From the sequence record OR845563.1: 2,081 bases of DNA; one strand, 5' to 3'. The DNA is from Escherichia phage ECO95 1-6-1. Below are positions 1 through 451 of the stretch, piece after piece. The notes under the pieces were generated by a model, which saw nothing but the letters and a program-made list of their open reading frames with translations, ran no database searches and had not been told where the DNA came from. A program made the position numbers and the translations under genes. How positions within the stretch are numbered: the first letter of the stretch is position 1; every line of letters starts with the position of its first letter.

Positions 1-30
1 CCCCCCCCCCCCCCTCCCCCCCCCCCACCC
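1..30. repeat. Near-homopolymeric poly-C tract (poly-G on minus strand) with isolated T/A interruptions at the extreme 5' edge; most likely a sequencing or contig-end artefact
   Basis: Seen directly: 26 of the first 30 nt are C. Position at the window edge and the isolated interruptions are typical of low-signal homopolymer calls. A biological phase-variable tract cannot be formally excluded. Confidence 0.6.
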
Positions 31-189
31 GCCAACCGAGATTCGGCCTATCGTCTCGTGGGCTCGGAGATGTGTATTAGAGACTTCGGTTTCATCATCA
101 AAATTCATATACAGCGATGTTGAGAGCAACGCTTCCAGGCGGCGCAGTTCATCTTCAATGTCAATTTCCGACCATTTGACCTTACGCAT
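1..189 (-). CDS. Hypothetical protein, C-terminally truncated by window edge; translationally coupled to the upstream Icd-like gene
   Basis: ATG at 189..187 overlaps the upstream gene's stop (ATGCGTAA; stop TAA 184..182). A perfect SD, AGGAGG, lies 6 nt upstream, embedded in the last codons of the preceding gene. Open frame with no stop to the window edge, translating as [51 protein letters not shown]... The last ~10 codons run into the poly-G artefact and should not be trusted. No family recognised. Confidence 0.55.
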
Positions 190-451
190 GACGCACCTCC
201 TGAATCGCGGCGCTGTCGAACTCCCACCCGCGGCGGGTGGTGTAATCGAAGAACGCAACGCGGCAAGGAGCCTGAGCGCGGATTTTGGCGGCAAAAACTA
301 AATCCCAGCCGGGGAAAGCGGCGCGGGCTTTAGCTTCCGTGTCAGCATCAAAGCGAAGCACTACTGGGGTGCATTCAGGAGTGTGATCTGGGGTTGCCAG
401 GAATAACCATGTAAATTCCGGGCGAGTTTGGGTAGACTGATTGTCAGCCAT
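182..451 (-). CDS. Small protein (89 aa), probably a host cell division inhibitor Icd-like protein of the kind found in P4-like and prophage early operons
   Basis: ATG at 451..449 preceded by SD GAGGT at a 7-nt spacing; stop TAA at 184..182. Translation: [60 protein letters not shown]...EVRHA. The F-x-W-L-F-L-A ... EA-x-AR ... W-x-L-x-F-A-A pattern matches my recollection of Icd-like proteins; this is from memory, not a search. The listed 253-aa ORF (182..943) is this gene plus a non-coding 5' extension. Confidence 0.6.

Follow-up and report, generated by a model that had tools for sequence, protein, structure and literature searches.

The locus considered here raises the question of what a small gene does when its start codon is embedded in the stop region of an Icd-like gene, and whether that arrangement marks it as a dedicated partner of a division inhibitor. 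The gene, referred to below as orf62, lies on the minus strand at the left end of a 2,081-nt stretch of Escherichia phage ECO95 1-6-1 (record OR845563.1), and 'the window' denotes this whole stretch. The explanation that we prefer, and hold to be slightly likelier right than wrong, is that orf62 is an accessory gene of a capsid-forming phage-inducible chromosomal island (cfPICI), that it is cut short in the window by adapter sequence, that it is coupled to the preceding gene by a joint generic to its operon, and that its product binds a protein of the host or of the helper phage.

The reading frame had at first been described as truncated by the window edge, but the truncation is an adapter junction at 85/86. 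Positions 1–85 are Illumina adapter read-through and poly-C at a contig end, and are not genomic. They begin with a degenerate poly-C run (1–36, no strand assigned; GC 0.77, GC skew −0.65), to which relatives align nowhere. This is followed by CGAGAT (37–42) and a 10-nt index-like stretch (43–52; TCGGCCTATC), both on the plus strand and directly 5′ of a Nextera read-2 transposase adapter with its mosaic end (53–85, plus strand). Local alignment matched the Illumina sequence of this adapter, GTCTCGTGGGCTCGGAGATGTGTATAAGAGAC, at 31 of 32 positions over 53–84. From the usual layout of such adapters we take CGAGAT to be the 3′ end of the Illumina P7 oligo, and 43–52 is presumably the i7 index. The poly-C is the reverse complement of the poly-G emitted by two-colour Illumina chemistry once the end of a library molecule has been passed, and a short insert that is read to its end, on into the adapter and finally into dark cycles (poly-G), gives, on the other strand, the pattern seen at 1–85.

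In three independent relatives the alignment to the window starts no earlier than position 86. These are Escherichia coli 873.10 (locus L001; 97–98% identity over 86–491), a Klebsiella record (L016; 99.5% over 86–2043) and L017 (100% over 86–1316), a wastewater virome contig from a Salmonella Kentucky phage enrichment that was deposited as 'Salmonella phage S.Kent 1-2-1'. Beyond the point that matches window 86, all three carry different, genuine sequence and a stop after codon 62 of orf62, and record OR851044.1 reads ...TACAGCGTTGCGATGGATCTG... in the equivalent place. Since the contig end is adapter read-through, orf62 breaks off after codon 35 in the window, where its genuine 5′ part (86–189, minus strand; ATG at 189–187) comprises codons 1–34 and two bases of codon 35. 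This part is identical in 104 of 104 nt to L016 and L017. The complete gene, recovered from L001, L016 and L017, has 62 codons and conserved homologues with the same coupling to the preceding gene, and the window is without the last 27. Of the N-terminal peptide quoted in the first-pass annotation, residues 1–35 are genuine, being identical to deposited proteins and ending ...FDDETE (residue 35), while the remainder is translated adapter. Untrimmed Nextera adapter and poly-G at contig ends in this data set thus produce spurious peptide sequence and spurious 'truncated genes'. From the same kind of source come two contigs of Salmonella Kentucky, 255 and 254 nt long (P0056 and P0174), that specify chimeric 'proteins'. 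One fuses a piece of UvrD with the C-terminal half of orf62, the other a piece of AlaE with the beginning of the Icd-like protein, which suggests that reads or contigs are chimeric in a data set akin to the one from which the window derives.

Comparative data identify orf62 as a real, conserved gene. It is already catalogued, with its function uncharacterised, and sequences identical to the window copy have been deposited. A profile search and a structure prediction, both suggested at the outset, led to phrog_7465, a family of unknown function, and to a predicted two-helix hairpin. The full-length protein (from L001) matched phrog_7465 with E=1.8e-45 and 153.9 bits, residues 1–62 aligning to profile positions 1–62, and the RefSeq entry is WP_044597561.1, a 62-amino-acid (aa) 'hypothetical protein'. 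Neither differs in sequence from orf62, and as the family has no assigned function it is silent on mechanism. A word-indexed search returned 60 homologues from Klebsiella, Salmonella, Enterobacter, Citrobacter, Raoultella and E. coli, nearly all of exactly 62 aa; across Enterobacteriaceae the lengths range from 60 to 65 aa and identity falls to about 35–55%. When 1.84 billion representatives were searched exhaustively by profile, only 30 clusters emerged, so that the family is narrow but real. A profile scan of a genome contig collection gave only two loci, as that collection has one genome per species. The orf62-orf104 pair was present in 5 of 5426 complete E. coli genomes and is commoner in Klebsiella. 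Among 16 distinct 62-codon orthologues the median ratio of non-synonymous to synonymous substitution rates (dN/dS) was 0.17, at a median dS of 1.37, whereas the other two frames gave 0.83 and 1.71. As the ratio is low only in the orf62 frame, the protein itself is under purifying selection. A literature search by the identifiers of the family found nothing.

Both junction features that had first drawn attention to orf62 were confirmed. Its start overlaps the Icd-like stop codon (TAA, 184–182) by 8 nt, as ATGCGTAA (182–189, minus strand), and a perfect Shine-Dalgarno sequence, AGGAGG (196–201, minus strand), stands 6 nt before the ATG and inside the last Icd-like codons (..Q-E-V-R-H-A). The arrangement is well conserved: in at least 45 of 52 non-redundant copies the orf62 start falls in the stop region of the gene before it, 39 times as ATGNNTAA and six times as ATGA, with a Shine-Dalgarno sequence at all of these overlapping starts. 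The same is seen throughout the gene array that runs from the Icd-like gene to the replicase. Its 326 junctions comprise 167 8-nt overlaps, 84 4-nt overlaps and 75 that are neither, whereas 8-nt overlaps make up only 17 of the 1284 junctions outside the arrays in the same loci. The stop of orf62 itself overlaps orf104 in like manner, as ATGCGTGA. The consensus of the joint is G[A/G]GGTG..CCATGCGT[A/G]A, and consequently many unrelated array proteins end in EVRHA, EVTHA or EVSHA and are followed by one that begins with MR or MP. Because unrelated neighbours share this joint, the overlap is not specific to the Icd-like gene and orf62; genes of this array are joined in this way as standard, and the overlap reflects operon-wide coupling rather than a pairwise relationship. 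Within this satellite operon, then, a tight overlap carries no information on pairwise function. The view of orf62 as a real, coupled partner accordingly holds in one respect, in that the gene is real and its start is coupled to the Icd-like stop, and fails in the other, as a generic joint and an optional gene do not indicate a specific stoichiometric partner. It could also be speculated that the standard joint acts as a recombination linker for cassette exchange.

That orf62 is optional emerged from a survey of 127 loci, in which genes were classified with local profiles as Icd-like, orf62, orf104, orf122, orf121, k65 or k75, and from which counts were taken for 92 non-redundant arrays, each anchored on an Icd-like match. 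The Icd-like gene is first in 92 of 92 of these (as arrays so anchored), whether orf62 is present or not. In 37 arrays the order is Icd-orf62-orf104, in 11 orf104 follows the Icd-like gene directly, and in 16 some other gene (X) stands between the two. At least 40 of the 92 have an Icd-like gene and no orf62, and the obligatory co-occurrence expected of a toxin-antidote pair was thus not found. Conversely, orf104 is without orf62 in 39 of the 85 arrays that contain it, and 46 of the 52 arrays with orf62 also have orf104, leaving six with orf62 and no orf104. Six or more unrelated small genes can take the orf62 slot. A k65-type gene does so in at least 11 arrays, and the other named alternatives are k75, a DUF4222-like gene of 56 aa and a gene of 106 aa; a few arrays pair orf62 with k65 or k75. 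The possibility that the X genes are divergent forms of orf62 was rejected, the best score being 5.3 bits, and they represent several other small families.

Individual islands illustrate the same flexibility. In E. coli KFu015, which carries a sister island at the same chromosomal site, unrelated genes of 65 and 75 aa replace orf62 and orf104, and the flanking orf122, orf121 and primase genes remain 84–98% identical. In L020/L021 and L023 another small gene lies between the Icd-like gene and orf62. The Icd-like forms found with orf62 are of 54, 61–66 and 86–95 aa, and the replicases are of DUF927 (L001, L004, L012), D5_N/Pox_D5 (L007, L020) and AAA_25 (L014) types. These comparisons place orf62 as an optional cassette in a variable slot between a constant Icd-like gene and orf104. 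Its constant association with the Icd-like gene arises because the latter is the universal first gene, and a survey of Enterobacter satellites found an Icd-like protein in most of them (PMC13612085).

The element itself can be assigned with the help of E. coli 873.10, in which orf62 lies in an island of about 15.7 kb bounded by yhdJ and fis. The island begins with genes for an integrase, a DUF6387 protein, an AlpA-like regulator, a KilAC antirepressor and, on the other strand, a YlcI/YnfO-like protein. The middle part consists of the Icd-like gene (89 aa), orf62, orf104, orf122, orf121, a DUF927 primase gene and two small genes, and the island ends with genes for an HK97-type capsid, protease, portal, head closure, connector, HNH, TerS and TerL proteins. 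By the published component list for cfPICIs (PMC10085698), all 11 core genes are annotated between yhdJ and fis in this strain, a relative that is 97–98% identical to window 86–491. They are accompanied by a tyrosine integrase, an AlpA-like helix-turn-helix (HTH) regulator and a DUF927 primase, and no tail, holin or lysis genes are annotated in that interval. The AlpA-like and KilAC genes are also found within the window. On this evidence orf62 is one of the early-operon genes of a cfPICI from Enterobacteriaceae. This operon comprises the Icd-like gene, a series of small and mostly overlapping genes (typically orf62, orf104 and orf122, the last basic and with a weak HTH-like match, and sometimes orf121) and a replicase of primase/helicase type. 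EcCIEDL933 and other cfPICIs are of the same class, having an integrase, an AlpA-type regulator, small ORFs (open reading frames), a primase, and then genes for HK97-type capsid, protease, portal, adaptor, connector, HNH, TerS and TerL proteins, and no tail or lysis genes. The present element differs from the EcCIEDL933-type picture in that orf62-orf104 is rare in complete E. coli genomes and the genes of the Icd-to-primase array are without published function.

Under our preferred explanation, ribosomes finishing the preceding gene would re-initiate at the orf62 ATG, 5 nt upstream of that stop, and the strong Shine-Dalgarno sequence would help them to do so. How much orf62 product is made would in this way depend on how far the operon's first gene is transcribed and translated, and that gene itself lies behind a conserved, structured leader. 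Expression would occur together with the rest of the operon after induction, and the finding that AlpA overexpression drives cfPICI reproduction (bioRxiv 10.1101/2025.02.11.637232) is consistent with early, induction-dependent expression. The orf62 product would act by binding another protein. An AlphaFold2 model built on an alignment of 33 sequences is a two-helix hairpin (helices 11–26 and 33–60) with a mean predicted local distance difference test (pLDDT) score of 86. The protein has a pI of 4.7, and the family is uniformly acidic (pI about 4.5–4.8, net charge about −5). For an acidic hairpin with no enzymatic or DNA-binding features, protein binding is the most likely activity. Given that orf62 combines freely with three Icd-like length classes, three replicase types and different antirepressors, and can itself give way to unrelated small genes, a host or helper target is likelier than an island partner. 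We put forward a host or helper-phage protein as the target tentatively, at somewhat less than an even chance. The gene would then probably be an accessory factor that tunes the interaction of the satellite with particular helpers or hosts.

A further reading is doubtful, namely that cassettes diversify at the slot behind the Icd-like gene, and that orf62 and its alternatives are specificity factors, each of which senses or neutralises a particular helper-phage or host-defence protein. If so, each factor would set whether the Icd-like/primase module gives satellite induction or growth arrest, and the joint GAGGTG..CATGCGTAA would let recombination swap cassettes with translation still coupled. 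In cfPICIs a variable region of unknown function has been described downstream of alpA (bioRxiv 10.1101/2025.02.11.637232). The gene orf62 adds another uncharacterised small protein to this variable early region, which probably governs the interplay of satellite, helper and host. The family is narrow, and nothing here suggests a new kind of mechanism.

Several points weigh against our explanation. With regard to coupling, folding of the RNA across the Icd-like/orf62 junction, in which a sequestered ribosome-binding site was sought, gave z = −1.3, which is not significant, and the perfect AGGAGG could equally support independent initiation at orf62, contrary to an obligatory coupling. With regard to the product, searches of orf62 by sequence against Pfam, NCBIfam, PADLOC and PDB profiles gave no matches, and Foldseek of the model against PDB and BFVD gave no significant match (best E = 3.1 and 1.0), a Spo0E-like phosphatase, IcmR-IcmQ and other helical hairpins of a generic kind being the top matches. 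The sample of loci is biased, having been fetched via orf62 or orf104 with related islands included. Finally, the Icd-like product alone among island proteins is always found with orf62, and a functional link to the Icd-like core domain may exist.

Among the alternatives, a role in replication survives best, and is still unlikely. It would make orf62 an accessory subunit of the replication module that, with orf104 and orf122, loads or regulates the primase/helicase at the origin. The location of the orf62 block directly upstream of the replicase would suit such a role, as would the frequent company of orf104 (46 of 52 arrays) and the basic, weakly HTH-like orf122, but the three replicase types that occur with orf62 are unrelated, 39 orf104-containing arrays do without orf62, and some islands (L004-6, L038) have orf62 without orf104.

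Similarly unlikely, and next in order, is the suggestion of the first-pass annotation that orf62 is a modulator or antidote of the Icd-like division inhibitor. As a dedicated, stoichiometric partner it would be held at a fixed ratio by the overlap and would limit toxicity by binding. P1 Icd is indeed a genuine FtsZ-targeting growth inhibitor (PMC11897509), orf62 is directly behind the Icd-like gene in most loci, no other island-encoded protein is always with it, and rare in-frame Icd::orf62 fusions exist. The survey does not support the proposal. Besides the many arrays with an Icd-like gene and no orf62, including the 11 with orf104 adjacent and no room for another gene, the slot can be taken by unrelated genes, a separate gene intervenes in L020/L021 and L023, and orf62 accompanies Icd-like forms of all three length classes. 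The joint is shared throughout the array by unrelated neighbours, and the fusions, which are frameshifts at differing sites, rare and also made with k65, resemble indel errors or pseudogenes.

The third alternative is that orf62 is a component of an Icd-centred abortive-infection or programmed-cell-death module. In the ECOR61 system of Silas et al. an Icd-like effector is linked to five genes, one of them a primase, and growth arrest follows the sensing of a phage accessory protein (bioRxiv 10.1101/2023.04.06.535777). The operon described here is of the same general make-up, as compared by description only, and gene callers also give a long, N-terminally extended Icd-like ORF at this locus. 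Any homology beyond the Icd-like protein and the primase would, however, be conjectural, PADLOC gave no matches for any gene of the block, and a gene as optional as orf62 is not a core component, making this reading improbable. More improbable still is that orf62 is itself a small inhibitor of host division or takeover factor, of the type of lambda Kil, T7 Gp0.4 and Hdi, which are small U- or V-shaped two-helix inhibitors of FtsZ (PMC11897509). The predicted fold, a 62-residue helical hairpin in the AlphaFold2 model, would agree with this, but such hairpins are among the commonest small folds, the likeness is one of shape only, and there was no sequence match or significant structural match to characterised proteins. 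Lastly, a chance open frame or assembly artefact, to which the artefactual left 85 bases and the missing orf62 annotation in the Klebsiella record L016 might point, has a negligible probability and is refuted by the comparative data, namely the conservation of length and sequence in many genera, the low dN/dS in the orf62 frame only, the conserved start joint and the annotation of orf62 as a coding sequence (CDS) by PGAP.

The gene preceding orf62 is first in the operon, occupies 182–450 on the minus strand and encodes an Icd-like protein of 89 aa. It was assigned to NF033153 and phrog_1743; the NCBIfam score for NF033153 was 62.8 bits against a cut-off of 25, as obtained on the 97–98% identical L001 copy, and short Icd-like forms of other islands score 46–66 bits. 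Upstream of it, the leader and promoter region (452–600, minus strand) contains a conserved TTGACA (reverse complement of 585–590) and a hairpin at about 489–522. The fold of the leader RNA (452–540, minus strand) has z = −3.18, and four base pairs of the hairpin are kept through compensatory double changes across seven divergent islands. Behind the hairpin comes a stretch that hardly varies, TCTnACCA..AACCGTTA..GAGGTAAC..ATGGCTGA, and the first 15 or so Icd-like codons are conserved at the nucleotide level, third positions included. By analogy, the leader stem-loop may be a regulatory RNA element comparable to the P1 C4 or P4 CI leaders.

The order of genes is reminiscent of the P1 immI operon (c4 - icd - ant1/2), in which a gene of the Icd family also comes first, is preceded by a structured leader, and has the next gene starting at its end. 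Riedel et al. reportedly described, in 1993, that icd and ant of P1 are translationally coupled. In P1, the C4 antisense RNA and icd control ant expression (PMC8198154). The present operon differs from immI in three respects. An Rfam scan of the whole window gave no match at E≤1, and so no C4 antisense RNA, and the leader carries another conserved hairpin instead. The Icd-like gene is followed by orf62, whose product lacks an ANT or KilAC domain, and the KilAC antirepressor is encoded upstream in a separate position. Lastly, the similarity of the Icd-like protein to P1 Icd is detectable by profile only and not by tblastn. The left operon of satellite P4 has a leader CI RNA, a first small gene (kil/eta) whose translation governs downstream expression, and further downstream epsilon, orf151 and the alpha primase. 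In this layout the P4 operon seems comparable to the present one, with its leader RNA, small first gene, several small ORFs and then a primase. The P4 sequences in the phage collection gave no match to the Icd-like or orf62 proteins.

Some further observations concern the Icd-like gene. At about 560–595 (minus strand) a −35-like TTGACA hexamer is followed by ACATGT-type palindromes, conserved upstream of the leader in several islands (the window, L002, L003 and L014). The −10 element of this putative promoter is weak, as for an activator-dependent promoter, and a consensus scan made no call. The Icd-like frame stays open for 253 codons upstream (182–943, minus strand), running antisense through the YlcI/YnfO-like gene. 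Other islands show the same, with calls of 280 aa in L014 and 435 aa in L007 and, in L016, a CDS annotated at 245 aa. Rich in R, S and C, the upstream portion of the extended frame looks non-coding. Fusion proteins of 148–150 aa have been deposited, four of them Icd::orf62 (P0061, P0098, P0142, P0157) and two Icd::k65 (P0133, P0159). They arise through frameshifts at differing positions and are rare by member count, and in the 89-aa gene the +1 frame has no stop over the final third and runs on into the gene that follows. They are probably due to indel errors or represent pseudogenes. Their use as 'Rosetta stone' evidence was rejected, in view of the different frameshift sites, the fusion of the unrelated k65 as well, and their rarity.

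Upstream of the operon, window 492–764 fails to align to the otherwise 95–98% identical island of E. coli 873.10, and is present in L016. It overlaps the divergently transcribed YlcI/YnfO-like gene (585–779, plus strand), which represents a mosaic replacement. The product has the look of a ribbon-helix-helix protein, and might regulate the promoter of the Icd-like gene. The record L016 (PQ569648.1, 'Klebsiella phage P12620-1', 106.5 kb) was deposited as a complete phage genome. It carries a whole cfPICI-like island with integrase and flanking genes, in which orf62, orf104, orf122 and orf121 are unannotated, and it may represent a mis-assembly or a co-packaged satellite.

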